Source: Oscillospiraceae bacterium
GTDB lineage: Bacteria; Bacillota; Clostridia; Oscillospirales; Ruminococcaceae
Assembly: GCA_045615915.1 (NCBI GenBank)
Contig: JAZLFU010000016.1
Span: 1 to 47,692, forward strand
Reading direction: 5' to 3'
DNA length: 47,692 nt
The notes beneath the pieces are model-generated. The model ran no database searches. It was not told the origin of the DNA and saw nothing but the letters and a program-made list of their open reading frames with translations. Both the position numbers and the translations under genes were made by a program. Of this stretch, positions 9,303 to 42,272 are shown piece by piece (position 1 is the first letter of the stretch; each line of letters opens with the position of its first letter).

Positions 9303-9410
9303 TACAAAAAGTAATCAAAATAAATTTTTATTCTTTTTCGGGGCATAATAGAAACATATCGCAAAATGTGGTAAAATATAAAGGGAAATAGAGTCGAAAG
9401 AAGTGTTATT

Positions 9411-10574: not shown

Positions 10575-10643
10575 CATTATGGCGTAATTTACAACCCTTT
10601 TTATATTGTTATATTATATTGATATATGAGAGGTGCAGAAAAA

Positions 10644-11336
10644 ATGAACTGTTCTAAAGACGTAGAAAGAATGTGTACGGTAACGAAAGGGCCAAACCAC
10701 GGTCCCGCGCCCATTCCGGAAGAAGGACGCTGGGTAAAATCCTATGATATCAAAGATATTTCCGGTTTTTCCCACGGAATAGGAGCCTGTGCTCCGCAGC
10801 AGGGAGCCTGCAAGCTTTCGCTCAACGTGAAAAACGGAATAATCAAGGAGGCGCTCGTTGAAACCATAGGCTGTACCGGTATGACTCATTCCGCGGCAAT
10901 GGCGGGCGAGATACTTCCGGGAAAAACCATTCTCGAAGCCCTCAATACCGACCTTGTATGCGACGCGATAAACGTTGCCATGCGCGAAATATTCCTCCAG
11001 CTTGTTTACGGAAGAAGCCAGACCGCTTTTTCCGAAGACGGACTTCCCATAGGCGCGGGACTTGAAGACCTCGGAAAGGGACTTCGTAGCTCTGTCGGAA
11101 CTATCTATTCCACCGGTGCGAAAGGTGTTCGCTACCTTGATCTTACCGAAGGCTATATCACTTCCATAGCCCTTGACGATAACAACGAAACTATTGGATA
11201 TAAATTTGTCCGCCTCGGAAAGATGATGGAGGATATCCGCCACGGAATGAAAGCGGACGAAGCTCTTGAAAAAAATACCGGCACGTACGGAAGATACGCC
11301 GATGCGCCGAAATACATAGATCCGCGTGAGGAATAA
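10644..11336 (+). CDS. NifU/IscU N-terminal-like domain protein (putative Fe-S scaffold-like)
   Basis: GACAPQQGACKLSLNVKNGIIKEALVETIGCTGMTHSAAMAGEILPGKTILEAL resembles the IscU fold with three Cys. The start was set at the ATG at 10644, 8 nt after GAGAGGTG. The ORF-track start at 10626 has no SD. Confidence 0.55.
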   Translation: MNCSKDVERMCTVTKGPNHGPAPIPEEGRWVKSYDIKDISGFSHGIGACAPQQGACKLSLNVKNGIIKEALVETIGCTGMTHSAAMAGEILPGKTILEALNTDLVCDAINVAMREIFLQLVYGRSQTAFSEDGLPIGAGLEDLGKGLRSSVGTIYSTGAKGVRYLDLTEGYITSIALDDNNETIGYKFVRLGKMMEDIRHGMKADEALEKNTGTYGRYADAPKYIDPREE

Positions 11337-12681: not shown

Positions 12682-13695
12682 TTACTTAGCTTTCTTTTTA
12701 GTACCAAGCAAGTAACCACCACCAAGGCCTAGTAAAATACAAATTATACTGGAAATAATCAGCACATTACCATCTCCAAAGATTGAGGCTGTATTGTTAT
12801 TCGCTTCAACTACCTCTTCGGAAATTATTTCTCCGCAATAATCACAAGTGTTTTTAACAATATAGGCAGGAATCTTTGTTTCAGTTATATGGTCGTGCTC
12901 ACCAGTTACATTGCATTTAAGAACATCACAGTATTGACAGTGTCCATTATCTTTCCACATGTGCTCACCAGTTACATCGCATTTAAGAACATCACAGTAT
13001 TGACAGTGTCCATTATCTTTCCACATGTGTTCGCCGGTTTCATCACACAAGAATTTTTCACAATACTCGCAATGTCCGTTGACATCCCATGTATGTTCAC
13101 CTGTCACATCACATTTAAATACACCGCAATACTTACAATATCCATCATCTCCCCATGTATGTTCGTTTGTGTCACATATAAACGCACCACACAGTTCGCA
13201 ATAGCCATCATTGCCCCAATAATGCTCATCGCATGTATAGTAAACTTTGATTATATCAAACTCAGAATATTTGGTGCCTCCATCAAAAGAAAATTCGCTG
13301 CTGTTAATATCATCGACATGAACCCATGTTCCCTTATTAACAGAGGTATTCTCTCTCTTGGTTCCTACTGTGACCCCTGCTTGTTCCCAATAAAAGCCAA
13401 AGTCACTAACGCGTGCCTCAATTCGCGTAATAGTGGCTTTTCTACCCTCTTTGACCCAAATTTTCACATAGTGATGTTCGTTTCCTCCGTAAACGGCTGT
13501 GTATGAAGGAACACATGCCTCAAGTAGAAAATTCTCCGTTTCAACAGTTGAAACTCTATAACCTCTTAAATCAAAATTAAATGTAAACGTTTCGTACAGC
13601 TCATCTGTTTTCGGATCTCTTTCAACCGCAAAAGCCGGAACCCAAAGAGACATTGCCATGATAAACACAAGAAGTAAACAGAATATTCTTTTCAT
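12682..13695 (-). CDS. Secreted, C-terminally membrane-anchored Cys/His-rich repeat protein (uncharacterized)
   Basis: The 337-aa product has a signal peptide (MKRIFCLLLVFIMAMSLWVPAFA), a ~130-aa N-terminal domain, and six tandem ~22-aa repeats with consensus C-D-x-T-G-E-H-x-W-x-x-N-G-H-C-x-Y-C-x-x-x-x. A C-terminal TM helix plus KKKAK follows. A TTGACA-type promoter lies upstream on the minus strand. Confidence 0.7.
   Translation of the reverse strand: MKRIFCLLLVFIMAMSLWVPAFAVERDPKTDELYETFTFNFDLRGYRVSTVETENFLLEACVPSYTAVYGGNEHHYVKIWVKEGRKATITRIEARVSDFGFYWEQAGVTVGTKRENTSVNKGTWVHVDDINSSEFSFDGGTKYSEFDIIKVYYTCDEHYWGNDGYCELCGAFICDTNEHTWGDDGYCKYCGVFKCDVTGEHTWDVNGHCEYCEKFLCDETGEHMWKDNGHCQYCDVLKCDVTGEHMWKDNGHCQYCDVLKCNVTGEHDHITETKIPAYIVKNTCDYCGEIISEEVVEANNNTASIFGDGNVLIISSIICILLGLGGGYLLGTKKKAK
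12823..13233 (-). repeat. In-frame coding tandem repeat array (six units of 19-31 codons, core 22 codons)
   Basis: The units read CDEHYWGNDGYCELCGAFI / CDTNEHTWGDDGYCKYCGVFK / CDVTGEHTWDVNGHCEYCEKFL / CDETGEHMWKDNGHCQYCDVLK / CDVTGEHMWKDNGHCQYCDVLK / CNVTGEHDH...CDYCGEII. Confidence 0.85.
12895..13026. repeat. Two adjacent 66-bp direct repeats differing at one position
   Basis: 12895-12960 and 12961-13026 are identical except 12912 (t) versus 12978 (c). They encode two identical 22-aa units. Confidence 0.9.
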
Positions 13696-20877: not shown

Positions 20878-22872
20878 TTATTCGTTTTCAGCGGAATTTC
20901 CGTTAAAATAGTATGAGATGATTTCTTTCGCGACCGGAGCGGCTGTATAACCCTGCCAGCCTTTTTCGATTATTACGGCAATGGCTATTTCCGGGTTTTC
21001 GGCGGGAGCGAAACAGATAAACGTACTGTTTACCGTTGCGGTACTTGTTTGAGGAGTACCGGTTTTTGAAGCGACCTTCATATCAAAGCCGTTCCAGACG
21101 AAACCGGATGAATCGATAGAGGATTGGAGCATTCCGGAAAGAACGGTATTATAGGTGTAATCCGTCATATTCATATCCGAAAGGACTTCGACCGGCGTTT
21201 CGTAGAGGACTTCGCTGAAATCAAAGGCGTTGATACTCTTTACAAAATGGGCGTTTACCCTTACGCCGCGGTTGGCTATGGTGGAAACGTAATTCGCCAT
21301 CTGAACGGGAGAAAACAGGCTATAACTCTGTCCAATAGAGGTTTGCAAAACGTCTCCCTTTTGCCAGTTTATTCCGTTATCGGCGGCATAGTCGGGATTT
21401 GATACCTGGCCTATTCTTTCTTTCAGTTCAATTCCGGTAGGCTCTCCGAGTCCGTAATAATAGGCGTATTGCCTTATATTGTCTATTCCAAGCCTTCTGC
21501 CTACTTCATAGAAAAAGATATTGCAGGAATAACCGAGGGCGCGAATTACGTTTAACGAGCCGTGGTGCCCCAAACAGGTCGGTTGGTAGTCGGAATAGTA
21601 GGTGTATACGTGTTCGCATTTTACGGTGGCCTTTGCGTCTATTACTCCAAGCTGGAGCGCCGCCGTCGCAATAACCGGTTTAAAGGTCGAGCCTATGGCG
21701 TAAAGTCCTTCGCAGGAACGGTTGAAAAGGGGATTGTAATCCCGTTCGAGGATATCGGAATAATCTTCATAGTAGGTGGAAATATCATAGGAAGGGTAGT
21801 TTGCTGCGGCGAGTATCTCTCCGGTACCGACTTTCATTACAACGCAGGTTCCGCCTTCGGATTCCTTACCTTTTCCTTCCTGGGCGGTGGCGCGGAGATT
21901 GAGTATCTGTTTTTCGAGGGCTTCCTGGGCAACCCGCTGGAGGTCCATATCCATTGTGAGAACGACTGTGCCGCCGGGAACGGCAGGATCGATTATTTCC
22001 TCGCTTACGATTTCGCCGTTGTTGTCATAGTTTACTTTTACTGTTCCGTCGTGGCCTTTGAGAACGGATTCAAAAGCCGACTCTATTCCGCTTTTGCCGA
22101 TGGTATCGTTTATACCGTATATACTGTGGTCGAGGTTTTCATATTCTTCCTCATAGATCCTTCCGGTAATTCCGACGATATGGGGCGCAATGTCTCCATT
22201 AGGATATTCGCGGACGTAGCTTTCGATTATATCTACACCATGGAAGGAGTGGCCGCGTTCACTTATGATATTTATAGTATCTCTCGATACGTCTTTTGCA
22301 AAGGTATACGTGGTGTTGTAGTTATAGCCGTCCCGCTCCATCTGGTAGCGAACGCCGGCGATTTTTCGGAAATCCGTATCATTATACTTTTCAAGGTCAT
22401 ATCGTTCTTTAAGGCGGAATATTATGTCTTCCGCGGAGGCGAATTCCGCAACGCCGAGAGTTTTGCGAAGACGGGATTGAGCCGTTTCGGAACCGGTGTA
22501 TCTCCAGGGAGCGCTTTCGGAAATCGGGAGTGTATCTATCCATTCCTCGTTCGTATCTTCGAGCACGTCAATGAGCTTCATTATAACGGAATTTTCGCTT
22601 CCGGTGATAATTCCGTTTTTGTCTATGACCACGTTGTAGCAGACGCGGTTTGTTGCGAAGGAACGGCCGTAGCGGTCAACGATATCGCCCCTTGCGGCTT
22701 CGATGGTTTTCGTAACGGAATATCCCTGGGAAAGGTAGGACTGGTAGCTTTCGCCTTCGACTATTTGTATAGTCATAAGTCTTATCATTATCGCAAAGAC
22801 CGCGATCAGTATAAAGCCGACCAGAATAAAATGGCGATATTCCTTTGCGTTTTTATTTTGTTCGTTTGCCAA
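20878..22872 (-). CDS. mrdA: Penicillin-binding protein 2 (peptidoglycan D,D-transpeptidase)
   Basis: The 664-aa product has an N-terminal TM helix, the transpeptidase motif GSTFKP, and KTGT. It is the last gene of the mreBCD cluster. Confidence 0.85.
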   Translation of the reverse strand: MANEQNKNAKEYRHFILVGFILIAVFAIMIRLMTIQIVEGESYQSYLSQGYSVTKTIEAARGDIVDRYGRSFATNRVCYNVVIDKNGIITGSENSVIMKLIDVLEDTNEEWIDTLPISESAPWRYTGSETAQSRLRKTLGVAEFASAEDIIFRLKERYDLEKYNDTDFRKIAGVRYQMERDGYNYNTTYTFAKDVSRDTINIISERGHSFHGVDIIESYVREYPNGDIAPHIVGITGRIYEEEYENLDHSIYGINDTIGKSGIESAFESVLKGHDGTVKVNYDNNGEIVSEEIIDPAVPGGTVVLTMDMDLQRVAQEALEKQILNLRATAQEGKGKESEGGTCVVMKVGTGEILAAANYPSYDISTYYEDYSDILERDYNPLFNRSCEGLYAIGSTFKPVIATAALQLGVIDAKATVKCEHVYTYYSDYQPTCLGHHGSLNVIRALGYSCNIFFYEVGRRLGIDNIRQYAYYYGLGEPTGIELKERIGQVSNPDYAADNGINWQKGDVLQTSIGQSYSLFSPVQMANYVSTIANRGVRVNAHFVKSINAFDFSEVLYETPVEVLSDMNMTDYTYNTVLSGMLQSSIDSSGFVWNGFDMKVASKTGTPQTSTATVNSTFICFAPAENPEIAIAVIIEKGWQGYTAAPVAKEIISYYFNGNSAENE

Positions 22873-22913
22873 AGCGAAAGCTCACCGCCTTTCTTCGTGA
22901 AATTTTGCCTGAA

Positions 22914-23438
22914 TTATTTATTCACCGTATCTATTTCCAGCTTATCGTGGAGCCAGCGGAAAATATAATAGTAGGGGAGAGAAAAAATCGAGCTCAACAA
23001 AACAGGGGGGACGATTACGGTATAGAAAAAGCCGGGCAATCCCTCGTACTGATACAGAACGTAGGAAAAGAAAAAATCGGAAAACGCGGTAAGAAAAAGT
23101 CCGCCGAAGCAAAGGAGCATTGCGTTCATCGTATCGCGCCGGAGGATATAAATCGTGATAAGCCCTATAATCGTGCAGAACACGAGATAAAAAAGCGCAT
23201 TGAAGCCGAAAATCGTTTCGGCGGCGGTATCACAGAAAATGCCCGCAAAAAAGCCGAAAAGCCCGCCGATAAATTCGCCTTCGAAAATAGCAATACAAAT
23301 ACAGGCAGGCAAGACGAGGTTCGGCTTTATTCCGTAAAAATCAAGAACTCCGGGAGTGCTCTGAATAATAAAAGAGAAGAAGATGATGATGGAATAAAGC
23401 GTATATTTAAGCAATTTTATTCTGAAATATCTTGTCAT
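22914..23438 (-). CDS. mreD: Rod shape-determining protein MreD
   Basis: The 174-aa polytopic membrane protein has a start that overlaps the mreC stop (ATGA). Confidence 0.75.
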   Translation of the reverse strand: MTRYFRIKLLKYTLYSIIIFFSFIIQSTPGVLDFYGIKPNLVLPACICIAIFEGEFIGGLFGFFAGIFCDTAAETIFGFNALFYLVFCTIIGLITIYILRRDTMNAMLLCFGGLFLTAFSDFFFSYVLYQYEGLPGFFYTVIVPPVLLSSIFSLPYYYIFRWLHDKLEIDTVNK

Positions 23439-24304
23439 TCAAGGCCATCTCCCTCTTCAGGATTTTCAGATTGACCTTTGAAGGATTTGAGCACGATTAC
23501 GTCCGTTACGTTGGAAATATCAGCGAAGGGAACTATTTCGGCGCTCAAAGAAAGTCCGTTGCCATCAAGCTCGATATTCTTTACCGTTCCGACCCGGAGG
23601 TCTTTCGGGTAAACTCCGCCTATTCCGGAGGTAACTACGATATCTCCAACCGCGATACCGCTGTTTTTGGGGAGGTAGTTAAGGCGGCAAAGTCCGTCGG
23701 AGGCAAGGGAAATATCTCCGGTTATTATTCCGCTGTCTCGGGTTGAGATACTGTAAACGCCGACTTCAATGGATATATCGAGTACCGTTCTTATGTGGGA
23801 ATATGTGGCGCCTACTTCCCAGACTATTCCGATAAGTCCGTCGGAGGTTATGATGGGGTCGGAAATTTTTATTCCGTCTATGCTCCCTTTATCTATTGTG
23901 AATGAGGCAAAACGGCTTGACGCATCGCGGCCTATGACTGTTGCAGGCTCGAATTCATAGTCCGGGTTCGTTTCTTTAAGTTCGAGGAATTTACGGAGTT
24001 GGTCATTTTCACGCTTCATTTTTTCGTAATCAACGAGCTTATCTTCAAGCTCCCGAACTCTCTCGTTAAGGTCTTTATTTTTGAGATATACTTCCTCTGT
24101 CCGAACAAATCTGTCAAGGAAATCATCAACGGAATTTGTTACCGAGGAGCTGAAATCAAGGAACGGCTGTGAAATAACGGAGGCAGCCTGGGATAAAAAT
24201 ACGTCGGTATTTCCGGAAGCGGCGGCGTGTATCATAATTGAGATTACAAGAATTGCAACAGCGGCAAGGACAAAGAAATGCCAGCTTTTGAAAAACTTCT
24301 GCAT
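23435..24304 (-). CDS. mreC: Rod shape-determining protein MreC
   Basis: It has an N-terminal TM helix, a coiled-coil (NKDLNERVRELEDKLVDYEKMKRENDQLRKF), and a beta-rich C-terminus. The start was set at the ATG at 24304, 8 nt after AGGAG. Confidence 0.8.
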   Translation of the reverse strand: MQKFFKSWHFFVLAAVAILVISIMIHAAASGNTDVFLSQAASVISQPFLDFSSSVTNSVDDFLDRFVRTEEVYLKNKDLNERVRELEDKLVDYEKMKRENDQLRKFLELKETNPDYEFEPATVIGRDASSRFASFTIDKGSIDGIKISDPIITSDGLIGIVWEVGATYSHIRTVLDISIEVGVYSISTRDSGIITGDISLASDGLCRLNYLPKNSGIAVGDIVVTSGIGGVYPKDLRVGTVKNIELDGNGLSLSAEIVPFADISNVTDVIVLKSFKGQSENPEEGDGLE

Positions 24305-24402
24305 ATAAACCGCTCCTTTCCGAAAATACTTTATTGTCAAAAAAAGCGCTCCGCCTGCTGCTATTGTTCAGAGCGGAGCGAAATAACCGTGGAACTGGGG
24401 GA

Positions 24403-25425
24403 TTATCCGAGGCGGCGTTCGCTGTCGGATACTACTTCTTTAAGAAGGTCGATATTGTCAAGAACTTTACCGGAGCCTATTGCAACACAGTCAAGTGCGT
24501 TTTCCGCAACGAAAACGGGCATACCGGTTTCTTTGGAAATAAGCTTGTCAATGTTATGGAGAAGGCTTCCGCCGCCGGTAAGAGTTATACCGTGGTCGAT
24601 GATATCTGCGGAAAGCTCCGGCGGAGTGCGTTCAAGGGTGGCCTTTATTGCATCCATAATGGAGGTGAGCGGGTCGGAAAGCGCATCGCGTATTTCCTCG
24701 CTCGTTATGAACATATTTTTAGGAAGTCCGTCGACGAGGTTGCGACCCTTTATCTCCATTTCAAGCTCTTCTTCAAACGGGAAAGCGGAGCCTATGGTCA
24801 TCTTTATGGCTTCGGCGGTGCGTTCACCGATAAGAAGGTTATACTTTTTCTTTATGTAGGAAATTATCGCTATATCGAATGCGTCTCCGCCGACACGAAC
24901 GGATTTGGAAGCAACTATACCGCCGAGGGATATAACGGCGACCTCGCTCGTTCCGCCGCCGATATCGACTACCATATTACCGCAGGCATCGGCAACGGGA
25001 AGCCCCGCTCCGATAGCCGCCGCCATAGGTTCCTCGATAATTGAAACGTGGCGTGCGCCGGCTTTTTCGGCGGCTTCCTTAACGGCACGTCTTTCAACTT
25101 CGGTTACGCCGGAAGGAATGCAGATAACAACTCTCGGACGGGCAAAAAGGGAGTTGTTGAAAACTTTTTTGATGAATATCTGGAGCATGCTCGCTGCGAT
25201 ATCAAAGTCGGCGATAACGCCGTCTTTAAGAGGTCTTACCGCAACGATAGAGCCGGGAGTACGTCCGATTACTTCCTTTGCTTCGGTACCGACGTAACGG
25301 ACTGTATCAGTTCTCGTATCAACGGCAACAACGGAAGGCTCGCGCATTATAATGCCCTTGCCCTTTGAAAAAATAAGCGTATTTGCGGTACCGAGGTCGA
25401 TACCTATATCCTGGTTGAAAAACAT
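24403..25425 (-). CDS. mreB: Rod shape-determining actin-like protein MreB
   Basis: [29 protein letters not shown], and [19 protein letters not shown] are canonical MreB motifs. Confidence 0.9.
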
Positions 25426-30065: not shown

Positions 30066-30914
30066 TCAGCTGAAACGGAAATATTTTTCAACCCTTGCGA
30101 GTGTTTCTTCGGTGAAAGAAAAAAGTCCGGTGGAGGTGTCTTTGAGCACGTCGCAGGTAACGTGGCTCGAAGAGACCGTTCCTGTGCTCAAAATTTCATT
30201 TACTGCGGAAATATATTCTTCGCGTTCAAGGGCGCTTATATCGGTTTTTGCGGCGTTATAAAGAACGGAGAAGAGATTGCCGCTTTCGGGCAGAAAACGG
30301 CGGAGCCTTCTTCGAAGAAATTCCGCGATCATTCGTGAAAGTGTGTCGCAGCGTTCCGCTTCGGTAAATTCGGGATATGTTACTATATCCGTGAATTTCT
30401 TGCCGTTAATGGACTGAACTCCGGCGGAAAGATTTATATAGCGTTTTCCGTCGGAATAAAAAAGACTTTTCGGCAGAACATAATCAAAGCCGCCGGATTT
30501 CGATATCAGCGTTTCGGCGCTTTCGCGATTCCAAACAAAATAGCCGTCTATATTGATATTAAGTTCTTTTTCAAGGGCACCGGTGAACACTTTTTCGGAG
30601 GTCATTGAAAAAAGTTCTCCGGCGGAAAGAGAAATTCCGGAATAACTCATTTCGGTTTTCCCGGAAAAGCTGAAAACCGGAATACGCCCGTGCTCAACGT
30701 CGAGCGCAATAAGAGAAAACGGCCCGTAGTTTTTTTCGTCTTCAAAGATGAAGAGAAAAACGGCGGGATCCGCGGATATATAGCTTTGTTCTTCGGTTTC
30801 GGAGGCGGTCGTTTCGGGCGAGGATTTCGAATAGCGGTATACAAAAACAGCCGTAATCGAAAACAGTATTAAAAATCCCGCGCCGAGGGCAAGTGAAAAA
30901 ATACGCATTTTCAT
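30066..30914 (-). CDS. Membrane-anchored hypothetical protein, possibly a divergent LytR-CpsA-Psr (LCP)-like domain
   Basis: It has one N-terminal TM helix. INIDGYFVWNRESAETLISKSGGFDYVLP resembles the LCP core (i.iD.yv.vnf.gf..lvd.lGG). The similarity is weak. Confidence 0.35.
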   Translation of the reverse strand: MKMRIFSLALGAGFLILFSITAVFVYRYSKSSPETTASETEEQSYISADPAVFLFIFEDEKNYGPFSLIALDVEHGRIPVFSFSGKTEMSYSGISLSAGELFSMTSEKVFTGALEKELNINIDGYFVWNRESAETLISKSGGFDYVLPKSLFYSDGKRYINLSAGVQSINGKKFTDIVTYPEFTEAERCDTLSRMIAEFLRRRLRRFLPESGNLFSVLYNAAKTDISALEREEYISAVNEILSTGTVSSSHVTCDVLKDTSTGLFSFTEETLARVEKYFRFS

Positions 30915-30971: not shown

Positions 30972-31232
30972 TTATTTCCTGTTTCTTATAAGCTCATATT
31001 TTTGTTTTGTGGCTTCTCCGCCGCGGATATGCCTTTCGAGCTTGTTTTTTTCGAGAATATTTTTGACTTCTTTATAGAGCGGCGGACTTATTTTAACAAG
31101 TCTTTCGGAAACGTCTTTATGTATCGTGCTTTTGCTTACTCCGAGCGCTTTTGCCGCGGAGCGTACCGTTGCACCGTTTTCGATTATGTATCTTGCCGCA
31201 AGAACTGCCCTTTCCTCCGGAAGCCCTTTCAA
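30972..31232 (-). CDS. spoIIID: Stage III sporulation transcriptional regulator SpoIIID
   Basis: LKGLPEERAVLAARYIIENGATVRSAAKALGVSKSTIHKDVSERL...RHIRGGEATKQKYE aligns residue-for-residue with my recollection of B. subtilis SpoIIID. The TTG start at 31232 lies 10 nt after GGAGG. The ORF-track start at 31253 contains the SD itself. Confidence 0.85.
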   Translation of the reverse strand: MKGLPEERAVLAARYIIENGATVRSAAKALGVSKSTIHKDVSERLVKISPPLYKEVKNILEKNKLERHIRGGEATKQKYELIRNRK

Positions 31233-31362
31233 AAGAACAAAACCTCCTTTCAAAAAAAGTTTAGTATGAAGGATATGAAAGAAAAGGACAAAATATTCAT
31301 CGTTGACTAAACCGCCGTTTTTGCTTATAATTTTAGTTGTAACAGAAAGCGAGGATGATAAA

Positions 31363-33274: not shown

Positions 33275-34201
33275 TTATTCGTAATATCCACAGGAGAGAT
33301 AACGGTTGCCGGTATCGGGCAGGATAACGGCGATATTTTTTCCGGAATTTTCCGGGCGCTTCGCAAGCTTTACCGCTGCGGCAATCGCACCGCCGGAGGA
33401 TATTCCGGCAAGATAGCCTTCCTTTGCCGCGAGGAGCCTTCCGTATTCGTAGGCTTCCTCATCGGTGATATCGAGGGTTTCGTCAATAAGAGAGATATCG
33501 ACGTTTCCGGGAAGATAGTTCGGCCCTATGCCCTGTATCTTGTGTTTTCCGACTTTATTTTGAGTGAGAAGCGGCGAAGAGGCAGGCTCATAAGCCACTA
33601 CTTTGACCTTCGGGAGCTTTTCTTTGAGATATCTTGCGCAGCCGGTTATGGTGCCGCCGGTACCGACTCCGGCAACGAAAACATCTATTCTACCGTCGAG
33701 CTGTTCAAACATTTCCGGCGCGGTGGAAAGATAGTGGGCGAGGGGATTGTCGGGATTTTCAAACTGGGAGGGCATAAAGCTGTTCGGGCATTTTTTAAGG
33801 AGTTTTTCGGCGACTTTTATGCTTCCGACCATACCTTCATCGCCGGGGGTGAGCACAAGCTCCGCTCCGAGAGCTTTGAGCACAAGCCTTCTTTCCATGC
33901 TCATGCTGTCCGGCATAACTATAATACAGCGGTATCCGCGGGTTGCCGCAACCGCCGCAAGACCTATTCCGGTATTTCCGCTCGTAGGCTCAATTATGAC
34001 GGAGCCGGGTTTTAATAAATGCTTTTTCTCCGCTTCGTCAAGCATGGTGAGGGCGGCTCTGTCCTTTATGCTTCCGCCGGGATTCATACCCTCGAGTTTG
34101 GCAAAGATACGGGCGGAAATGCCTTCGGATTTTTCTATTTTACAGAGTTCAAGCATAGGAGTTTTTCCTATAAGCTCGCTGAAACTTTTCGCTACGTTCA
34201 T
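33275..34201 (-). CDS. cysK: Cysteine synthase A (O-acetylserine sulfhydrylase)
   Basis: NPGGSIKDRAAL (PLP lysine), TSGNTGIGLA, and GVGTGGTITG are present. Confidence 0.9.
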   Translation of the reverse strand: MNVAKSFSELIGKTPMLELCKIEKSEGISARIFAKLEGMNPGGSIKDRAALTMLDEAEKKHLLKPGSVIIEPTSGNTGIGLAAVAATRGYRCIIVMPDSMSMERRLVLKALGAELVLTPGDEGMVGSIKVAEKLLKKCPNSFMPSQFENPDNPLAHYLSTAPEMFEQLDGRIDVFVAGVGTGGTITGCARYLKEKLPKVKVVAYEPASSPLLTQNKVGKHKIQGIGPNYLPGNVDISLIDETLDITDEEAYEYGRLLAAKEGYLAGISSGGAIAAAVKLAKRPENSGKNIAVILPDTGNRYLSCGYYE

Positions 34202-34271: not shown

Positions 34272-34300
34272 TTGACAAAACAATAAATTTATATTATATT
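34272..34300 (+). promoter_or_regulatory. Sigma-A-type promoter for the PsuG-like gene
   Basis: TTGACA (34272-34277), a 17-nt spacer, then TATATT (34295-34300). Confidence 0.6.
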
Positions 34301-34342
34301 ATATAAGTAATAGTTTGCTCACGAATGGAGGAAACCTTGTCT

Positions 34343-36310
34343 ATGAAAAAGAATTTTTATTTTGAAATAGCGCCGGAGGTACAGAATGCCATCCGGGGCG
34401 GAATGCCCGTTGTTGCACTTGAATCCGCAACGGCCTGTTGCGGAATGCCCTATCCGCAAAGCGCCCAGGTCTTGAGAAAAGCCGAGGAGGTCGTTCGCGG
34501 CGAGGGCGCAGTCCCAGCAACGATAGCGGTTCTCGGCGGAAAAATAAAGGTGGGACTTACCGCCGAAGAAATCGAGTGTCTTGCAAAGAAAGGAAAACCC
34601 GCGGCAAGAGCTTCGAAAAAAGATATTCCTATTCTTATCGCGAAAGAGGAGGACGGAGCCGCCACTGTTTCCGCCGCCGCAATGATAGCGGAAATGGCGG
34701 GAATAAAGGTTTTGGCTTCCGGAATCGTAGGAGGAGTTCTCCGCGGCGAAGAAAACAAGGCTGACGTTTCCGCGGATATCGAAGCGGTTTCCGAAAACGA
34801 TATCGCGGTAGTCTGCGCCGGAATCGAATCCGTTTACGATATAGACCTTACCCTCGAATATCTCGAAACGAAGGGTGTTCCGGTGGTCGGCTTCGGAACA
34901 AAAGAGCTTCCGGCTTTCTATTGCAGAGAGAGCGGTTTCGGTGTTGACTATGAAATCGACGAGCCGGAGGAACTTGCCGCAGCGATAAAAGCGAAACACG
35001 ACCTCGGAATAAAGAGCGGAATCCTTGTTGCGAATCCTGTTCCGAGAGAACACGCAATGAATAAAAATCAGGCGGATATGGTTATTGAACGCGCGGTAAA
35101 AGCGGCTTCCGATAACGGCATAAAAGGAAAAGAGCTTCCCACCTTCCTTATGGCGCTTATTAAGGAAATGACCGGCGGAATGAGCCTCGATACGACTGTT
35201 GAGGCAATTCTGAACAACGCGAGAATCGCCGCAAAGACAGCATACAGCCTTGCCGCTCTCGGAAGCGATGAAGAGGACGAATGTGATGAGCTTCTCCGCG
35301 CGGAAATTGCCGATGATACCGCCGAAAGCATAGGCAGAGAGATAAACGCTTTCAGAAACGAAGTCGAAAATATAATAAATCAGAGAATGGCCGCGATGCC
35401 TATAAATCCGTATATGAACCCGTATATGAATCCCTATCAGCAGCAGCCTAATCCATATCAGCCCAATCCCTACCAGCAGGCTCCGTTCCAGAATCCCTAC
35501 CAGCCGGCGCCGCAGCAGCAGCCTCCGTTCCAGCCGGCGCCTCAACCTGCTCCTATGCCCTACGTAAATCCGTATAAACCGGTACGTCAGGAGCCGGAAC
35601 CTGTTGAGGAACCCGAAATTCCCGTTTACGATCCGAACAAATACAAAGTTCCCGATGATCAATGGGTAAATCCTTTCGCTCCGAAGCACGATAATGAGCC
35701 GGAAAAGGCCGCCGAGCCCGAAGAAAAGATAGAAGAAACTTCCGCCGGCGGCGATTCGCCCGTAATAGCGAATACCGCTCCGGAAGTTATGCAGATGGTC
35801 GAGGATTCCGTTGAGGAAACAAAAGAGGAAGAAGTTCCTGCTGAAGAGACCGAGGAGGAGGCTCCCGCTGAAGAGGAAACCGCTACCGAAGTTCCGGAAG
35901 AAACCGAAGAAGCTCCGGCAGAGGAAACTCCGGTTGAGGAAGCTCTCGCAGAGGCCGAAGAAAACGCCGGGGAGGATGAAAATACTCTTACCGAGTACGT
36001 TCCTCCGGTTCACGAAAAGAAAAAGCGCAAACCCGACAATATGGAAAAACCCGAAATGGACGGAGAGGGAATGACCTCTTACGATCCGGAGTTTTACCGC
36101 AAGAGGGCGGAGGAGCGTAAACAGCGTCTTGCGGAAGCGGCGGGAGAGAGCAAACACGTCGAGGAAGCCAAAGCCGCCGAGCCGGAATATATTGACTGCA
36201 AAGGTCCGCTTGAATTTACCGGCGAACACCCATGGGCATGGAAATGCACAAGATGCGGTCAGGTGTTCCAAAAGCACGAGATCCCGCATAAATGCGTAAA
36301 GACCGAATAA
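34343..36310 (+). CDS. PsuG/IndA-like (pseudouridine-5'-phosphate glycosidase family) domain fused to a long low-complexity Pro/Gln/Glu-rich C-terminal region
   Basis: Residues 1-~310 match the IndA fold motifs (VVALES, GMPYPQ, GAVPATIAVLGG, VVCAG..S..D, TLEYLETKGVPVVGF, ANPVP). Residues ~318-620 are low complexity (NPYMNPYMNPYQQQPNPYQ..., EETEEEAPAEEE...). The C-terminus has a Cys/His cluster. The start was set at the ATG at 34343. Confidence 0.75.
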   Translation: MKKNFYFEIAPEVQNAIRGGMPVVALESATACCGMPYPQSAQVLRKAEEVVRGEGAVPATIAVLGGKIKVGLTAEEIECLAKKGKPAARASKKDIPILIAKEEDGAATVSAAAMIAEMAGIKVLASGIVGGVLRGEENKADVSADIEAVSENDIAVVCAGIESVYDIDLTLEYLETKGVPVVGFGTKELPAFYCRESGFGVDYEIDEPEELAAAIKAKHDLGIKSGILVANPVPREHAMNKNQADMVIERAVKAASDNGIKGKELPTFLMALIKEMTGGMSLDTTVEAILNNARIAAKTAYSLAALGSDEEDECDELLRAEIADDTAESIGREINAFRNEVENIINQRMAAMPINPYMNPYMNPYQQQPNPYQPNPYQQAPFQNPYQPAPQQQPPFQPAPQPAPMPYVNPYKPVRQEPEPVEEPEIPVYDPNKYKVPDDQWVNPFAPKHDNEPEKAAEPEEKIEETSAGGDSPVIANTAPEVMQMVEDSVEETKEEEVPAEETEEEAPAEEETATEVPEETEEAPAEETPVEEALAEAEENAGEDENTLTEYVPPVHEKKKRKPDNMEKPEMDGEGMTSYDPEFYRKRAEERKQRLAEAAGESKHVEEAKAAEPEYIDCKGPLEFTGEHPWAWKCTRCGQVFQKHEIPHKCVKTE

Positions 36311-36392
36311 ATTTAATAATGAACTGAACGGGCGGAGCATTTCCGTCCGTTTGGATTTAGTTAGAATAAATTTAAAAAAGGAGGAGAGCTTT

Positions 36393-36950
36393 TTGGATGA
36401 AACTTTTACTGCCGGAATACGTCCGGGCGGACTTACGGCGGGAAGAGAGATAAGGATCCTTATCTGCCATATTCTTTCGGAAGTAAACGAGGCTATGAGC
36501 TTTGATGAGATGACGGAAGTGTTCCTTTCCGATGGGACTGCGAATTATTTTGAGTTTGCGGATGCGCTTTCGGAGCTGAATGAGAGCGGCTGTGTTGTAT
36601 CGTTCAAATCCGATGCGGGAATAAGCGAATATTCCGTAACGAAAAAAGGAAGAGAAGCCGCAAAAACTCTCCTTGCCGATTTGCCGGCGGCGGTGGAGGA
36701 ACGCTCCGTTACCGCGGCAAAAAGCGTTATTCAAAAAAGAAGACTTGAAAAGGAAAATCTCGTTTCCATAACGAAAACCGAGGATGGATATAAAATCCAT
36801 ATGCGCGTTACGGATATAGGTACCGACCTTATGGAGCTTTCGCTTTTCATGCCCACGAGGGAGCAGGCAAACGCCGTGAAAAAGCGTTTTCTTGAAGATC
36901 CCGCAAAAACCTATTCCGAAGTGCTTTCCGCCCTTGCCGGAAAATTCTGA
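36393..36950 (+). CDS. DUF4364 family protein
   Basis: The ~185-aa product has Clostridia-typical family features as I recall them. The TTG start at 36393 lies 6 nt after GGAGGAG. Confidence 0.5.
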   Translation: MDETFTAGIRPGGLTAGREIRILICHILSEVNEAMSFDEMTEVFLSDGTANYFEFADALSELNESGCVVSFKSDAGISEYSVTKKGREAAKTLLADLPAAVEERSVTAAKSVIQKRRLEKENLVSITKTEDGYKIHMRVTDIGTDLMELSLFMPTREQANAVKKRFLEDPAKTYSEVLSALAGKF

Positions 36951-36974: not shown

Positions 36975-38033
36975 ATGAGCAAAAAAACGGTTGCGTTGCT
37001 TTTCGGCGGAGTATCGAGCGAACACGAGGTTTCGTGTATGTCCGTTACATCCGTTGCGGAAAATATAGACAGAGAAAAATATGAAGTCCTCATGCTCGGA
37101 ATAATGAAGAACGGCGAATGGCGTCTTTATTCCGGCGATATCGCGAAAGTGAAAAGCGGCGAATGGAAAAACGATTGCGAAAATCTTAAAAAAGCATATA
37201 TCTGTCCGGATAGAAGCATCCACGGAATTATGGTATATGACGGCAAAGAGTGGAGCGAAAAACGGATAGACGTCGTATTCCCGGTAATGCACGGGAAAAA
37301 CGGCGAAGACGGAACCATGCAGGGACTCCTTGAAATAGCAGGTATCCCATATGTCGGCTGCAAGGTGCTTGCCTCCGCGGATTGCATGGATAAAGACGTT
37401 TGCCATGCGCTTTTACAGAGAGCGGGTGTACCCCAGGTCGAATGGCTCACCTATTTCCGCGGCTGCGACTTTGATGAAGCGGAGACCGCCGTTTCCGAAA
37501 AACTCGGATATCCGGTATTCGTAAAGCCGGCAAACGCGGGTTCCTCCGTGGGAATTACGAAAGTAAAGGCTCCGGAGATGCTCAAAGAGGCAATGGAACT
37601 TGCTTTTGAGCACGACGAGAAAATAATTATCGAAGAAGCCGTAAAAGAGCCGATAGAGGTCGAATGTGCCGTAATCGGGAACAAAAAGCCCTATGCGAGC
37701 GTGCTCGGCGAAGTTGTTCCGGCAGATGAATTTTACAGCTATGACGCAAAATATTATAATGCGGAAAGCAAACTCTATATCCCGGCGCGTCTTTCCGAAA
37801 GCATTACGGAAGAAATAAGAAAGACCGCAGTAAAAGCGTATAAGATACTCGGCTGCAGCGGACTTGCGAGAGTTGATTTCCTCGTTGAGGGCGAAACCGG
37901 AAAAATCGTTCTCAATGAGCCGAATACCCTTCCGGGATTTACCAATATTTCAATGTACCCGAAACTTCTTATGGCTTCCGGAATGACCTACGCCGGAATT
38001 ATTGATAAGGTTTTGGAGCTTGCCGAAGAATAA
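36975..38033 (+). CDS. ddl: D-alanine--D-alanine ligase
   Basis: VALLFGGVSSEHEVS, FPVMHGKNGEDGTMQGLLE, YPVFVKPANAGSSVG, and EPNTLPGFT are present. Confidence 0.9.
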   Translation: MSKKTVALLFGGVSSEHEVSCMSVTSVAENIDREKYEVLMLGIMKNGEWRLYSGDIAKVKSGEWKNDCENLKKAYICPDRSIHGIMVYDGKEWSEKRIDVVFPVMHGKNGEDGTMQGLLEIAGIPYVGCKVLASADCMDKDVCHALLQRAGVPQVEWLTYFRGCDFDEAETAVSEKLGYPVFVKPANAGSSVGITKVKAPEMLKEAMELAFEHDEKIIIEEAVKEPIEVECAVIGNKKPYASVLGEVVPADEFYSYDAKYYNAESKLYIPARLSESITEEIRKTAVKAYKILGCSGLARVDFLVEGETGKIVLNEPNTLPGFTNISMYPKLLMASGMTYAGIIDKVLELAEE

Positions 38034-38053
38034 TCCGCTTGGAGGAAAAACAG

Positions 38054-38875
38054 ATGGATAAAAGGCCGATAGGTGTTTTCGATTCGGGGCTCGGCGGACT
38101 CACTGCCGTAAAAGAATTGCGAAGAATACTTCCGGGCGAAGATATTGTCTATTTCGGAGATACGGGACGGGTTCCCTATGGGAGCAGAAGCCCCGGCGTC
38201 ATTAAAGAATACGCCTCGCAATGCCTGCGCTTTATTGAAAAGCAGGACGTGAAGCTTATAGTTATAGCCTGCGGAACGGTAAGCTCCGTTTTTGACGATG
38301 AGATGCGAAAGGAGTTTTCCGTACCATGTATGGGCGTTTTGAAGCCCACCGTTGAAGCGGCTGTTAAAGCGACAAAGAACGGAAAAATAGGGCTTATCGC
38401 AACGGCCGCTACCGTTTCGAGCCGTTCCTATGAAAAGCTTACGGAAAAGCTCATGCCGGAAGCGGAATTTACCGCAAAGGCGTGCCCGCTTTTTGTTCCG
38501 CTTGTTGAAAACGGATATTTCAAAATGGGGAACGAAGTTACGGAGCTTGTCGCGAAGGATTATCTTTCCGCATTTGACGGGAAAGATATAGATACTCTTA
38601 TTCTCGGCTGTACCCATTATCCGCTTCTCTATGATTTGATAGATTCGCTTACAGAGCAGAGGCTCAATCTCATTGATGCGGGAAAAGAAACCGCTTCGGA
38701 GACAAAACGTTTTCTCACTGAAAAAGATATGCTTTCCGGTTCCGGAAACGGAGATATGAAATTCTTCGTTACGGATAAAATAGAGGGCTTTTCGAAGCTC
38801 GGAAAAGAGTTCCTCGGTGAAGAACTCGAAAAGGTAAACCATGTTGATATAGAAAAACTTGTTAAGGAATATTAA
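38054..38875 (+). CDS. murI: Glutamate racemase
   Basis: IGVFDSGLGGLT, VIACGTVS, and LGCTHYPLL carry the two catalytic Cys motifs. The start follows GGAGG. Confidence 0.9.
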   Translation: MDKRPIGVFDSGLGGLTAVKELRRILPGEDIVYFGDTGRVPYGSRSPGVIKEYASQCLRFIEKQDVKLIVIACGTVSSVFDDEMRKEFSVPCMGVLKPTVEAAVKATKNGKIGLIATAATVSSRSYEKLTEKLMPEAEFTAKACPLFVPLVENGYFKMGNEVTELVAKDYLSAFDGKDIDTLILGCTHYPLLYDLIDSLTEQRLNLIDAGKETASETKRFLTEKDMLSGSGNGDMKFFVTDKIEGFSKLGKEFLGEELEKVNHVDIEKLVKEY

Positions 38876-39307
38876 ATGAAAAAAGACGTTATGATTTATA
38901 TAAAAGGTATTCGGAACATAGACGGAGATAAGGATACCGTTGAGCTTTACACAAAAGGAAGATATTATAAGCGGAGCGGAATGTATTTTCTCTCTTACGA
39001 TGAGATGGAAGAGGACGACATAGAGCCGACGATAAAGACTATTCTTAAAGTTGACGGCACGAAATGCGTTACGATGACAAAGAGCGGAAAACGCAAAAGC
39101 CAGCTTATTATTGAAAACGGTGAACGCCACCAGTGCCATTACGATAACGGATACGATGATTGGATAATGGGAATAGAGGGCAGCAGTATAGAAAACGGTC
39201 TTAAAGATAATGGCGGTATCCTCAATTTCAAATATTCAATGGATATAAATACAATGCTTACAAGTGAGCACGAGATAAACATAGTAGTCAAGGAGAGTGA
39301 AAACTGA
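38876..39307 (+). CDS. DUF1934 domain protein
   Basis: The 143-aa beta-rich protein lies immediately upstream of, and overlaps, argS. This is the usual Firmicute arrangement for DUF1934. Confidence 0.6.
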   Translation: MKKDVMIYIKGIRNIDGDKDTVELYTKGRYYKRSGMYFLSYDEMEEDDIEPTIKTILKVDGTKCVTMTKSGKRKSQLIIENGERHQCHYDNGYDDWIMGIEGSSIENGLKDNGGILNFKYSMDINTMLTSEHEINIVVKESEN

Positions 39308-41046
39308 TGCGTAATTTGATATCAGAAGCAAAGGCACAGTATAGAGAGCTTATTGAAAAGGCGGTAAAAGCCGCAGTTTCTTCCGGCGCTCTCGGAGAGG
39401 GAGAAATTCCGGAATATATTATCGAAATACCGGCTGATACCAAAAACGGAAATCTTGCTTCAAACGTTGCTATGGTTTCGGCAAGGGCTTTTCATAAAGC
39501 GCCGCGCCAGATTGCAGACGCAATAGCCGCAAACCTTGACCTTTCCGGAAGCTACTTCGAAAAAGCGGAGGTAGCCGGTCCCGGATTTCTCAATGTGTTC
39601 TATGCGCCGCATTGGTATGCAGAAACCGTTTCCGCCGCTATCACAGAAAAAGACGATTACGGAAAGAGCGACGAAGGAAAAGGCAAAAAGGTAATGGTGG
39701 AATTCGTTTCCGCGAACCCTACCGGCCCTATGCACATGGGTAACGCAAGAGGCGGCGCTATCGGAGATGGACTTGCCGAAGCTATGAAATGGTGCGGCTA
39801 TGACGTTACAAGGGAGTTTTACGTAAACGATGCCGGAAACCAGATAGAGAAATTCGGGAAATCCCTTGAAGCGAGATATATCCAGCTTTATAAAGGCGAA
39901 GATGCTGTTGAATTCCCGGAGGACGGATACCATGGCGAGGATATAAAAGTCCGCGCGAAAGAGTTTGCCGATATGAACGGCGATAAATACCTTGAAACTT
40001 CTTCCGAGGAGAGAAAACAGGCTCTTGTAAACTACGCACTTCCGGCAAACGTCGAGGGACTTGAACGCGACCTTCATAAATACAGAATAGACTACGACGT
40101 ATGGTTCAGAGAAAGCTCTCTCTATAAAAACGGAACTGTTGATAAAATCGTCAAGATACTCACCGAAAAGGGACTTACCTATGAAAAAGACGGCGCACTC
40201 TGGTACAAAAACGCGGAGGTACTTACCGCAAGACTGAAAGCGGAGGGCAAGACCGATAAACAGATAGAAGACCTTGAACTCAAAGATGACGTTCTTATCC
40301 GCGCGAACGGAAATCCCACCTATTTTGCCGGAGATATCGCATATCACTATAATAAATTCGCTGAGCGCGGATTTGATAAAGTCATAAACGTTTGGGGAGC
40401 GGACCATCACGGCCACGTTGCCCGTCTTAAAGGCGCAATGGATGCCATCGGCGAAGACGGAAATAAACTTGACGTTGTTCTTATGCAGCTTGTTGAGCTT
40501 ATGAGGAACGGAAAGCCGGAGAGAATGAGCAAACGTACCGGGAAAGCCATAACTCTTACTGACCTTCTCGAAGAAGTTCCGATAGACGCCGCCCGTTTCT
40601 TCTTCAATATGCGCGAGCCGAATACCCACCTTATTTTCGATCTCGACCTTGCCGTCGAGCAGTCGAGCCAGAACCCGGTTTATTACGTTCAGTATGCTCA
40701 CGCAAGGATATGCTCCATTCTTCGCGCTCTTGCCGAGGAGGGAATTTCTCCGAAAGAGGATATTTCGGTTTATAACTACACCGAACCGGAGGAGCTTGCC
40801 CTTGTTACCGAGATAGCGCAGTTTCCGGGCGAAATAATTGAATCCGTAAAGGCATACGATCCCGCGAAGATCACGAAATATGCCGTTGATATTGCGACTA
40901 TGTTCCATAAATTCTATAACGCCTGCCGCTGCCGTGTTGATGATGAAAACGTTATGTATGCGAGACTTGCTCTTATCCTCGCCGCAAAGACGACTATTAA
41001 AAACGTACTTACAATGCTTAAAATCGACGTTCCGGAGAGCATGTAA
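39307..41046 (+). CDS. argS: Arginine--tRNA ligase
   Basis: The class I HIGH-type motif reads SANPTGPMHMGNARG, and the MSKRTG (KMSKS-like) motif and a C-terminal anticodon-binding domain are present. Confidence 0.9.
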   Translation: MRNLISEAKAQYRELIEKAVKAAVSSGALGEGEIPEYIIEIPADTKNGNLASNVAMVSARAFHKAPRQIADAIAANLDLSGSYFEKAEVAGPGFLNVFYAPHWYAETVSAAITEKDDYGKSDEGKGKKVMVEFVSANPTGPMHMGNARGGAIGDGLAEAMKWCGYDVTREFYVNDAGNQIEKFGKSLEARYIQLYKGEDAVEFPEDGYHGEDIKVRAKEFADMNGDKYLETSSEERKQALVNYALPANVEGLERDLHKYRIDYDVWFRESSLYKNGTVDKIVKILTEKGLTYEKDGALWYKNAEVLTARLKAEGKTDKQIEDLELKDDVLIRANGNPTYFAGDIAYHYNKFAERGFDKVINVWGADHHGHVARLKGAMDAIGEDGNKLDVVLMQLVELMRNGKPERMSKRTGKAITLTDLLEEVPIDAARFFFNMREPNTHLIFDLDLAVEQSSQNPVYYVQYAHARICSILRALAEEGISPKEDISVYNYTEPEELALVTEIAQFPGEIIESVKAYDPAKITKYAVDIATMFHKFYNACRCRVDDENVMYARLALILAAKTTIKNVLTMLKIDVPESM

Positions 41047-41690: not shown

Positions 41691-42272
41691 TTGAAAAAAA
41701 TATTTTCACTTTTGCTTGCACTTTTGATGATATTTGCTTTTTCCGCCTGCGGCAAAGAGGAAGTATTTGATATCGGAAAAGTTAAAGACGGAGTTTATAT
41801 AAATGACTATATGGATATAAAGGCAACTTTGCCGGAAGGGTTCGAATTTATGTCCGATGATGAGGCAAAAAAGGCTTTCGGTGTAACGGAGCTTTATTCC
41901 GATGGCAGCGCCTTCGGTTACGGAGCTTTCGCTACAAGTGAAACCGGAGCTTCGCTGAATTTTACTTTTGAAAACACCGCGCTCTCAAGAGAAGAAAAAT
42001 GTACCGCTGAGGGATATTTGAATGAAACTCTTGATTCGATGTTCTCGCTGAGCAGCTATTGTGTTGTGGATTATGAAAAGGGCGTTATGAACTTTGGCGG
42101 AGAGGATATTCACTATATGGATATAGAACTCAGCGTGGATATAGGTACTGATACTGTGGAGATATTCGAGCGCATGGCTGTCAAAGAAAAGGAAGAATGG
42201 ATATGTATAATAAATGCCGCTTCGCAATATGAAGCGGATATCGAAGCTCTGTTTTCCGGAATAGAAATGTAA
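41691..42272 (+). CDS. Hypothetical lipoprotein
   Basis: It has a signal peptide with a lipobox (IFAFSACG). No family was recognised. Confidence 0.55.
   Translation: MKKIFSLLLALLMIFAFSACGKEEVFDIGKVKDGVYINDYMDIKATLPEGFEFMSDDEAKKAFGVTELYSDGSAFGYGAFATSETGASLNFTFENTALSREEKCTAEGYLNETLDSMFSLSSYCVVDYEKGVMNFGGEDIHYMDIELSVDIGTDTVEIFERMAVKEKEEWICIINAASQYEADIEALFSGIEM

Follow-up and report, generated by a model that had tools for sequence, protein, structure and literature searches.

A long-tailed paralogue of pseudouridine-5'-phosphate glycosidase with a rebuilt active site in a gut Oscillospiraceae genus: a probable pseudoenzyme

The gene and its locus

The window analysed here is a stretch of 47,692 nucleotides from Oscillospiraceae bacterium (GenBank assembly GCA_045615915.1, contig JAZLFU010000016.1, positions 1 to 47,692 of the forward strand). 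Its plus strand carries, at 34343..36310, a gene of 655 codons plus stop whose product joins a domain of the pseudouridine-5'-phosphate glycosidase (PsuG) family to a long C-terminal tail. PsuG, which is well understood, acts by a C-glycosidase mechanism that is rare among enzymes. In the window protein, two lysines of its active site are replaced and the tail is strongly conserved, a combination that suggests a pseudoenzyme.

The stop-free open reading frame (ORF) spans 34325-36310 (+) and encodes 661 amino acids (aa) when counted from an upstream in-frame ATG at 34325. Residue numbers are counted from that position and equal the E. coli YeiN number plus 2, or the Arabidopsis PUMY (AtPUMY) number minus 17. 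The start assumed in an earlier reading made from the letters of the stretch (the sequence-only reading), 34343, is the likely one, because the spacing of a ribosome-binding site GGAGG (34327..34331, 11 nt upstream of this ATG) and the orthologue starts, which align with the Met at 34343, agree. A promoter-like TTGACA-17-TATATT lies at 34272..34300 (+) and matches the consensus at 11 of 12 positions; this is a consensus match only, and the scan found four promoter-like sites where 3.2 were expected in shuffled sequences. A terminator-like hairpin of 14 pairs at 36324..36354 (+), likewise a consensus match only and with a weak T-run, separates the gene from the DUF4364 gene downstream. A search of Rfam around the gene returned zero matches, and a tRNA search found zero.

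The divergent neighbour is a cysK-like gene (PALP; 33275..34201, minus strand), whose synteny is kept in the genus. Downstream follow a gene for a 185-aa DUF4364 protein (36393..36950, plus strand, with a TTG start at 36393 and its own GGAGG 8 nt upstream), ddl (36975-38033), murI (38039-38875), DUF1934 (38876-39307), and argS (39307-41046). The order cysK (divergent), long PsuG, DUF4364, ddl, murI, DUF1934, argS recurs in 24/24 related loci as far as their contigs reach; these loci come from Oscillospiraceae metagenome-assembled genomes of ruminant and other herbivore guts. This shared order identifies the window gene as the positional orthologue of a long-tailed PsuG that is catalytically intact. 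Across the loci, the neighbour proteins are 70-89% identical to those of the window, and the long PsuG itself is only 54-63% identical.

Full-length relatives of the window protein number 641, and the best 120 are 647-686 aa long and 58-92% identical at 98-100% query coverage. Among the query and these best 120, the canonical active-site residues together with the tail are found in 116 of the 121 proteins, and the substitutions described below occur only in the window protein and P0002. One further member, P0033, has a single conservative active-site change, and P0003 and P0004 have changes outside the 19 ligand sites considered below and keep both lysines.

An altered active site in the PsuG domain

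The PF04227 (Indigoidine_A / PsuG) domain occupies residues 18-307 (34376..35245); it and the motifs that follow are on the plus strand. The Pfam hidden Markov model (HMM) is matched over positions 1-290 of 291 (E 4.6e-103), with a score of 348 bits in the window protein versus 437-454 bits in the intact long and short copies of the genus. A phmmer search against solved structures aligned residues 13-307 without gaps to E. coli YeiN (4gij, E 7.1e-84). These two results bear out the sequence-only reading, which had taken the first 310 or so residues to be PsuG-like, and the alignment to 4gij and 4gim also confirmed its account of a retained Glu31, of Lys93 and Lys166 replaced by Arg and Glu, and of two altered motifs, with all codon coordinates correct.

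Arg95 (34607..34609) stands at E. coli Lys93 (AtPUMY Lys112), and Glu168 (34826..34828) at the Schiff-base Lys166 (AtPUMY Lys185); the K166A mutant structure 4gim departs from 4gij exactly at the column where the window protein has Glu. The motif TIISHG is replaced by ATACCG at residues 35-40 (34427..34444), so that the uracil-side Thr52 and Ile53 of AtPUMY become Ala and Thr. SGIVGGVLRG (34718..34747) replaces TGGIGGVHRG, with Thr130 changed to Ser, Gly132 to Ile, and His137 to Leu in E. coli numbering. In the lid helix, PTFLM (35138..35152) replaces TPFLL, which turns AtPUMY Thr289 into Pro and Leu293 into Met. The metal and phosphate loop DVSAD (34763..34777), which contains Asp145, Ser147, and Asp149 of the E. 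coli enzyme, is kept. The proton-donor Glu31, the metal-ligand Asp145, and Ser147 are thus conserved as E33, D147, and S149.

The replaced columns are close to fixed in the family. An exhaustive HMMER search, queried with the domain, gave 149 representatives of clusters at 50% identity; of these, 143 have K and none has E at the Lys166 column, and 139 have K and six have R at the Lys93 column. Because both columns are so nearly fixed, the substitutions in the window protein do not look like chance drift. Three further metagenome proteins, with domains 96-97% identical to that of the window protein, share them.

As a separate observation, five tail-less PF04227 representatives have V, Q, D, Q, and N at the Lys166 column (P0212, P0230, P0240, P0250, and P0268, respectively), and their first motifs are altered. 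P0230 is 415 aa long and the other four are 300-307 aa. They may belong to further branches of PF04227 that are non-canonical or inactive.

The AtPUMY study names the residues that lie about 5 Å or less from substrate and metal (PMC10761123). At 10 of 19 such positions the window protein is changed (T52A, I53T, T149S, L293M, N308T, K185E, K112R, H156L, T289P, and R116K), while E50, T131, S133, D168, S166, E198, F215, and D164 are kept. The non-canonical lid and uracil-side residues are Pro272, Ser132, Met276, and Thr291, which correspond to AtPUMY Thr289, Thr149, Leu293, and Asn308. Glu181 corresponds to AtPUMY Glu198, which comes from the adjacent subunit, and does not vary even among degenerate forms. 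The pocket as read from these alignments is one in which the ribose-C1'/uracil half and the lid are rebuilt, and the metal and phosphate half is mostly preserved.

In the same paper, the AtPUMY mutants E50A, K112A, D164A, S166A, K185A, T289A, and L293G had undetectable activity, and T149A/V and N308A kept less than 1% of the efficiency (PMC10761123). Four of the seven residues with activity-abolishing mutants are altered in the window protein. The equivalent of Lys93, which the sequence-only reading had called catalytic, is described there as phosphate-binding instead, and no Arg mutant is reported there (PMC10761123). The mechanism of PsuG, as given in a second paper, needs an iminium that links Lys166 and the open-chain ribose (PMC7722734).

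The C-terminal tail

The tail, of about 350 residues, begins with an acidic linker after the domain. Residues 325-362 (35297..35410, plus strand, as for all tail segments) form an amphipathic, helix-like segment that is 63-87% identical to that of active-site-intact orthologues; its pattern suggests a helix or coiled coil. A low-complexity, disorder-like stretch follows (35411..35977), with a Pro/Gln/Tyr-rich part, conserved islands, and an acidic Glu/Ala/Pro part. The short islands read PYVNPYKPV, VPDDQWVNPFAPK, and GGD..VIA..EVM.MVE. By a crude charge-hydropathy measure, the whole tail falls on the disordered side. The tail DNA contains tandem repeats of 12 and 15 nt.

The C-terminal module (residues 552-621, 35978..36187) contains two T-x-Y-x-P motifs and a basic, helix-like YRKRAEERKQR, and the Cys/His-rich end (residues 622-661, 36188..36307) closes the protein. 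Identity of the window protein to intact orthologues rises along the chain, from 61-66% in the domain to 81-93% in the module and 89-97% in the end. The end motif D-C-K-G-P-L ... K-C-x-R-C-G-Q ... H-E-x-P-H-K is present in 121/121 family members checked. In 25 of 25 aligned tails, which include lineages with an enzyme domain only 40-50% identical to that of the window, D624-L629, W639-C641, R643-Q646, H651, and H655 are invariant. The last cysteine, C657, is Arg in five of them and His635 is Tyr in one; because these two vary, three Cys and one His are the likely set of putative metal ligands. The end is probably a small metal-binding knuckle, although its rubredoxin-like and zinc-ribbon matches in Pfam are sub-threshold (21.4 bits versus a cut-off of 26.5).

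As an observation on strain variation, contigs from other samples carry in-frame insertions in the tail, namely 9 nt behind 35896 in the acidic part (three variants) and 6 nt behind 35518 in the Pro-rich part. The length of the tail is polymorphic among strains.

Database searches gave no relative for the tail. No significant match was found in the PDB by sequence or by profile, no usable match in the ESM Atlas, and nothing for the tail in PADLOC and PHROGs; NCBIfam had zero matches for the whole protein, and Pfam found no kinase or other known domain in the extra length. Stand-alone tail modules were not found except for eight short fragments on contigs of less than 1.8 kb. Searches beyond the genus, in 400 genomes from 178 genera of the order and in 398 other genomes of a class-level draw, did not find the tail either. 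The profile used for the class-level draw included two full-length proteins, so it also covered the enzyme domain, and the 37 matching genomes gave domain-only matches in ORFs of about 300-380 aa. The sequence-only reading had treated the tail as an appendix. It is the most conserved part of the protein, and it is probably the reason for the retention of the gene.

The psuK-psuG operon and loss of Lys166 in the genus

The genus survey covered 36 genomes of one Oscillospiraceae genus, among them the genome of the window (G000). PF04227 is present in 36/36 and the long form in 35/36, with only a short copy in G048. In addition, most of the genomes encode a short PsuG, about 310 aa long and canonical in its residues, directly downstream of the gene for a 360-aa product that combines a winged helix (HTH_24) with a PfkB kinase; the best solved relative of this product is E. 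coli pseudouridine kinase (PDB 7vkp, E 2.6e-67). A canonical example of this operon is found at L057 4888-6924 (+), and the same locus occurs in 23 other genomes of the genus. The HTH-fused PsuK may control its own operon.

PsuK is present in 24 of the 35 other genomes. It was not found in G000, G006, G008, G011, G012, G024, G044, G045, G047, G049, G050, and G051, and the short PsuG was found neither in these 12 genomes nor in G005. G000 is 63% complete, and the other genomes without detected PsuK are 82-99% complete (G050 97%, G006 96%, G047 82%). The sequence-only reading had proposed to search the genome for a canonical pair, and none was found in G000 at that completeness.

In every one of the 23 genomes that hold both PsuK and a long form, the 19 ligand sites are identical throughout. 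Among the genomes in which PsuK was not found, G006, G047, and G049 are also identical at all 19, G050 has one change, and a fragment in G051 has three with both lysines kept. G000 differs from the long-form consensus at 11 sites. The clade of G008, G011, G012, G024, G044, and G045 has eight to nine changes together with a two-residue deletion that removes Lys166; Lys93 is kept in this clade, and Ser147 is Pro. Lys166 is therefore lost in seven of the 12 genomes without detected PsuK versus none of the 23 PsuK-holding genomes with a long form. A further loss is seen in P0207, on an unplaced metagenome contig, which has Ala at Lys166 and has lost the metal loop; its tail shares special motifs with that of P0126, which keeps both lysines.

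The sequence-only reading had also argued from the neighbours of the gene. No psuK lies beside it, as claimed, but the argument is weak because orthologues with an intact active site occupy the same locus without psuK, and the operon of the genus lies elsewhere. The weight lies instead on the operon, which was not found in the genome of the window or in its nearest relatives.

One loss or several

In a tree of the domain, all long forms lie on one side of a branch (Shimodaira-Hasegawa-like approximate likelihood ratio test, SH-aLRT, 94), as sister to the short PsuG of the genus. The window protein and P0002 group with G050, P0003, and P0004 (SH-aLRT 99). By parsimony, the label "Lys166 lost" needs two changes on the tail tree, and as many on a tree built from the six neighbour genes. 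Approximately unbiased (AU) tests did not reject a single clade that lacks Lys166, with p 0.12 for the neighbour genes, 0.57 and 0.31 for the domain, and 0.20 and 0.43 for the tail. Derived residues at 252-263 are common to the window protein and G050, and the other Lys166-lacking clade has the ancestral state there. Independent losses are suggested by this block and by the lesions themselves, which differ: a substitution with Lys93 changed in one case and a deletion with Lys93 kept in the other. Two to three loss events are likely on this evidence.

Rates of evolution and constraint

Branch lengths were estimated against ten outgroup genomes. For the six neighbour genes, the window branch (0.130) and that of its sister G050 (0.118) are similar in length. 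For the enzyme domain, the window branch is about three times as long (0.316 versus 0.103), and for the C-terminal module it is shorter (0.034 versus 0.064). The acceleration on the window branch affects the enzyme domain only. The 27 intact long forms share 194 invariant domain positions; the window protein departs from them at 51, and the changes are enriched near the ligand (10 of 18 ligand-proximal positions versus 41 of the other 176; odds ratio 4.1, Fisher p 0.0085).

A metagenome scan for a close DNA relative gave at best 54% identity. Four public runs contain contigs that are about 95% identical to the gene. The non-synonymous differences of these contigs in the domain (I23V, M41I, P92S, and I301V) are those of P0002, so the contigs represent a sister strain with the same active-site substitutions. 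Among the best-supported 40 of 198 differences, the domain has 14 synonymous and four non-synonymous ones, and residues 545-661 have 16 synonymous and no non-synonymous ones, with 10 of the 16 in the Cys/His end. Four independent sequences of the window lineage have an uninterrupted frame of 655 codons.

The ratio of non-synonymous to synonymous substitution rates (dN/dS) points the same way in the other lineage. In the Lys166-lacking clade, the domain has a dN/dS of 0.13 (five genomes, 10 pairs) versus 0.07 in intact genomes (14 genomes, 91 pairs), and the Cys/His end 0.034 versus 0.016. The degenerate domains are constrained, not decaying.

Proposed role and alternative explanations

We favour, with some confidence, the explanation that the window protein is a pseudoenzyme kept for a non-catalytic role that depends on its tail. 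From the change of Lys166 to Glu, of Lys93 to Arg, and of the lid Thr to Pro, and from the alteration of half of the ligand-contacting residues, we infer that the protein almost certainly no longer cleaves pseudouridine 5'-phosphate. In this respect the sequence-only reading, which had proposed loss of pseudouridine cleavage and a binding or scaffold module, is the favoured one, as suggested by the inactive AtPUMY mutants at four of the changed positions together with purifying selection. Loss of catalytic residues combined with purifying selection is also the general mark of a pseudoenzyme, and the inactivity itself is predicted on the same grounds. Because the defining catalytic features fail, the protein should not be filed as a pseudouridine-5'-phosphate glycosidase.

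The sequence of events was probably as follows. A PsuG duplication and the gain of a tail of about 350 residues would have produced a long-tailed paralogue specific to the genus. In most species, the intact core of this long form would work alongside the separate psuK-psuG salvage operon. In the window lineage, the operon would have disappeared and the active site would then have been dismantled, so that the enzymatic half of a bifunctional protein was lost. The PsuG fold, which forms a trimer in homologues of solved structure, would serve as an oligomeric hub that presents three flexible tails, and the conserved C-terminal module would bind a conserved cellular partner, either a protein or a nucleic acid.

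Several observations weigh against this explanation. Asp145, Ser147, Glu31, Asp149, and the Glu of the neighbouring subunit are kept, and Arg preserves the charge of Lys93, so a site for a phosphate ligand could survive. That changes cluster in the pocket is as compatible with adaptive remodelling as with relaxation, and the counts within the lineage come from 40 of 198 differences. The sequence searches made did not identify a partner of the tail. With G000 only 63% complete, the absence of psuK-psuG leans partly on G050, G006, and G047. The contrast of seven in 12 with none in 23 is a pattern rather than a statistic, because the seven genomes amount to at most two events; five genomes without detected PsuK keep Lys166, so a genome can lose the operon and still retain the site. 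Finally, the substitutions, the orthology, the distribution, the rate shift, and the constraint are observed, and inactivity, the scaffold role, the trimer, and metal binding by the end module are deductions.

The chief competing explanation is that the pocket, with Glu168, Arg95, Leu139, Ser132, and Pro272, was repurposed to bind or convert another phosphorylated ligand, as a sensor or for new chemistry. It draws on the retained Asp147, Ser149, Asp151, Glu33, and Glu181 and on the preserved charge at Arg95, on the concentration of substitutions in the pocket (odds ratio 4.1), and on a fast burst on the window branch, with purifying selection afterwards. The same pocket residues also occur in 4/4 known sequences of the lineage, but these are 96-97% identical, so the shared pocket says little. 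The other long forms without Lys166 carry different and more destructive lesions: the deletion and the Ser147 to Pro change of the clade, and the loss of the metal loop in P0207, differ from what is seen in the window protein, which shows that the family is retained without a common pocket, and Glu is found at the Lys166 column in 0 of the 149 family representatives. We regard a repurposed pocket as possible but doubtful. Similarly tentative is a bolder proposal, which we would not expect to hold, in which the long-tailed PsuG is mainly structural or regulatory, a trimeric hub whose three disordered, motif-bearing tails end in a metal knuckle and whose pocket acts as a metabolite sensor, rebuilt (Glu168, Arg95, Leu139, and Pro272) for another phosphorylated ligand after loss of the operon. 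If it were true, the protein would be a naturally re-tuned sensor-scaffold rather than a dead enzyme. A tail that anchors the PsuG core to RNA, to ribosomes, or to the machinery of RNA decay, in a role that outlived the enzymatic one, seems rather unlikely. The substrate of the ancestral PsuG does come from RNA turnover, the source of pseudouridine nucleotides, and a basic, helix-like stretch followed by a Cys/His knuckle, with weak sub-threshold resemblances to rubredoxin-like and zinc-ribbon families, could be read in this way; however, neither significant similarity to an RNA-binding domain or solved structure nor an RNA family nearby was found.

Two further possibilities sit poorly with the evidence already given. 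That other residues or another mechanism replace the Lys166 iminium, and the protein is still a pseudouridine-5'-phosphate glycosidase, is very unlikely, even though the domain is full-length (348 bits against PF04227) and Glu31 and the metal site are kept. The mutants K185A, K112A, T289A, and L293G of AtPUMY are reported to have undetectable activity even at 100-fold enzyme concentration (PMC10761123), the mechanism needs the lysine iminium (PMC7722734), the alignment shows no evident Lys close by that could compensate, and the searches did not find PsuK. It is just as hard to believe that the gene is functionless and decaying after loss of the pseudouridine pathway. An enzyme domain about three times faster on the window branch and an operon that was not found would fit decay, but the 655-codon frame is intact in four sequences, synonymous differences are in excess (14:4 and 16:0), the C-terminal module shows a lower rate than its counterpart in the sister lineage, and the older Lys166-lacking clade still has a domain dN/dS of 0.13 over six genomes. 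A pseudoenzyme retained for its tail thus remains the explanation that we prefer.

The genus provides a series that comprises the intact enzyme with the operon, the intact enzyme without it, and two or three lineages with a dismantled site. The end of the tail is near-invariant throughout. Together these forms make a clean natural series for the change from enzyme to pseudoenzyme, and they point to a so far undescribed, non-catalytic function in uncultured members of the gut Oscillospiraceae. The long-tailed PsuG paralogue of the genus is not a described family, and a literature search found no paper on a pseudoenzyme form of pseudouridine glycosidase. Annotation pipelines will name the gene a pseudouridine-5'-phosphate glycosidase, which is probably wrong for the window lineage.

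Neighbouring genes and further observations

The locus gives no functional lead. DUF4364 is single-copy in 27/30 other genera of the family and in 20/20 high-quality genomes searched, and in seven loci examined in other genera it adjoins neither ddl, cysK, nor psuG. A functional link of the long PsuG to DUF4364, ddl, or murI was considered and is unsupported, as the adjacency is specific to the genus and the terminator-like hairpin lies between the genes. The DUF4364 protein has a weak winged-helix resemblance and no solved relative. It is a widespread unknown of Oscillospiraceae, and a literature search found no paper that mentions it.

A stop-free antisense frame (34319-36340, minus strand, 673 aa) covers the whole gene in codon register and is also fully open in 22/35 orthologues. 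It is open because the sense gene has no TTA, CTA, or TCA codons (0 of 655, versus 1.0% across 31 genes of the window). As a gene it was rejected, since the sense-synonymous differences hit its first codon positions; the frame is not conserved as a protein and probably arises as a side effect of codon usage and amino-acid composition.

Other long forms in the genus show variants of their own. P0126 and the G051 fragment L089 represent a third, more distant long-tailed type, in which both lysines are kept and the uracil-recognising Thr (AtPUMY Thr149) is Leu or Ile. The long form of G008 (L072 1152-3229) lies in two frames, as a 565-aa piece and a piece that matches residues 479-659; this split in the low-complexity tail could come from a genuine frameshift or from misassembly of the repeats. 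Two copies or fragments with near-equal scores are found in G022 (contigs C3 and C28) and in G010 (contigs C75 and C109), which are probably due to strain mixture or split assembly, not duplication.

Elsewhere in the window lie six ORFs of 193-500 aa for which Pfam gives no match at E 1e-5 (2-1504, 9315-10292, 10626-11336, 12682-13695, 30066-30914, and 41691-42272). The ORF at 10626-11336 directly precedes a gene of the GGGtGRT family (11354-12352). A PBP2-MreC-MreB cluster (20878-25425) and a SpoIIID gene (30972-31253) lie upstream of the long PsuG, and their presence suggests a rod-shaped, spore-forming organism.

Comparison with known systems

E. coli YeiN/PsuG (PDB 4GIJ) shares the fold family with the window protein, and Glu31, Asp145, Ser147, and Asp149 are kept between them. 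It differs in that it has no 350-residue tail; the window gene has no adjacent psuK, and Lys166, Lys93, Thr130, Gly132, His137, and TIISHG are altered in its product. Arabidopsis PUMY (PDB 8K05-8K07) aligns with residues 12-312 without gaps (E 5.4e-65). PUMY is a trimer in which an active-site Glu comes from the neighbouring subunit (PMC10761123). This Glu is conserved in the window protein, whereas 10 of the 19 proximal residues differ.

The PF04227 fusions and the C-glycoside enzymes of the AlnA/IndA type are alike in that they contain PF04227 (the AlnA match has E 5.5e-40), and some PF04227 proteins are 600-800 aa long. These long representatives are presumably fusions of PsuG with the PsuK kinase.

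Other long-tailed forms are also close. The clade of G008, G011, G012, G024, G044, and G045 and P0207 resemble the window protein in the tail end and in the loss of the Schiff-base Lys, and the genomes of the clade have no detected PsuK; they differ from it in their other lesions and in their much more diverged tails. The intact long orthologues (such as P0008, P0099, G047, and G050) have the same locus and architecture, with a module and an end that are 81-93% and 89-97% identical. They differ in that all 19 ligand sites are kept (with one change in G050), mostly in genomes that also hold a psuK-psuG operon, and their domains are 75-90% identical to one another versus 61-66% to that of the window protein.

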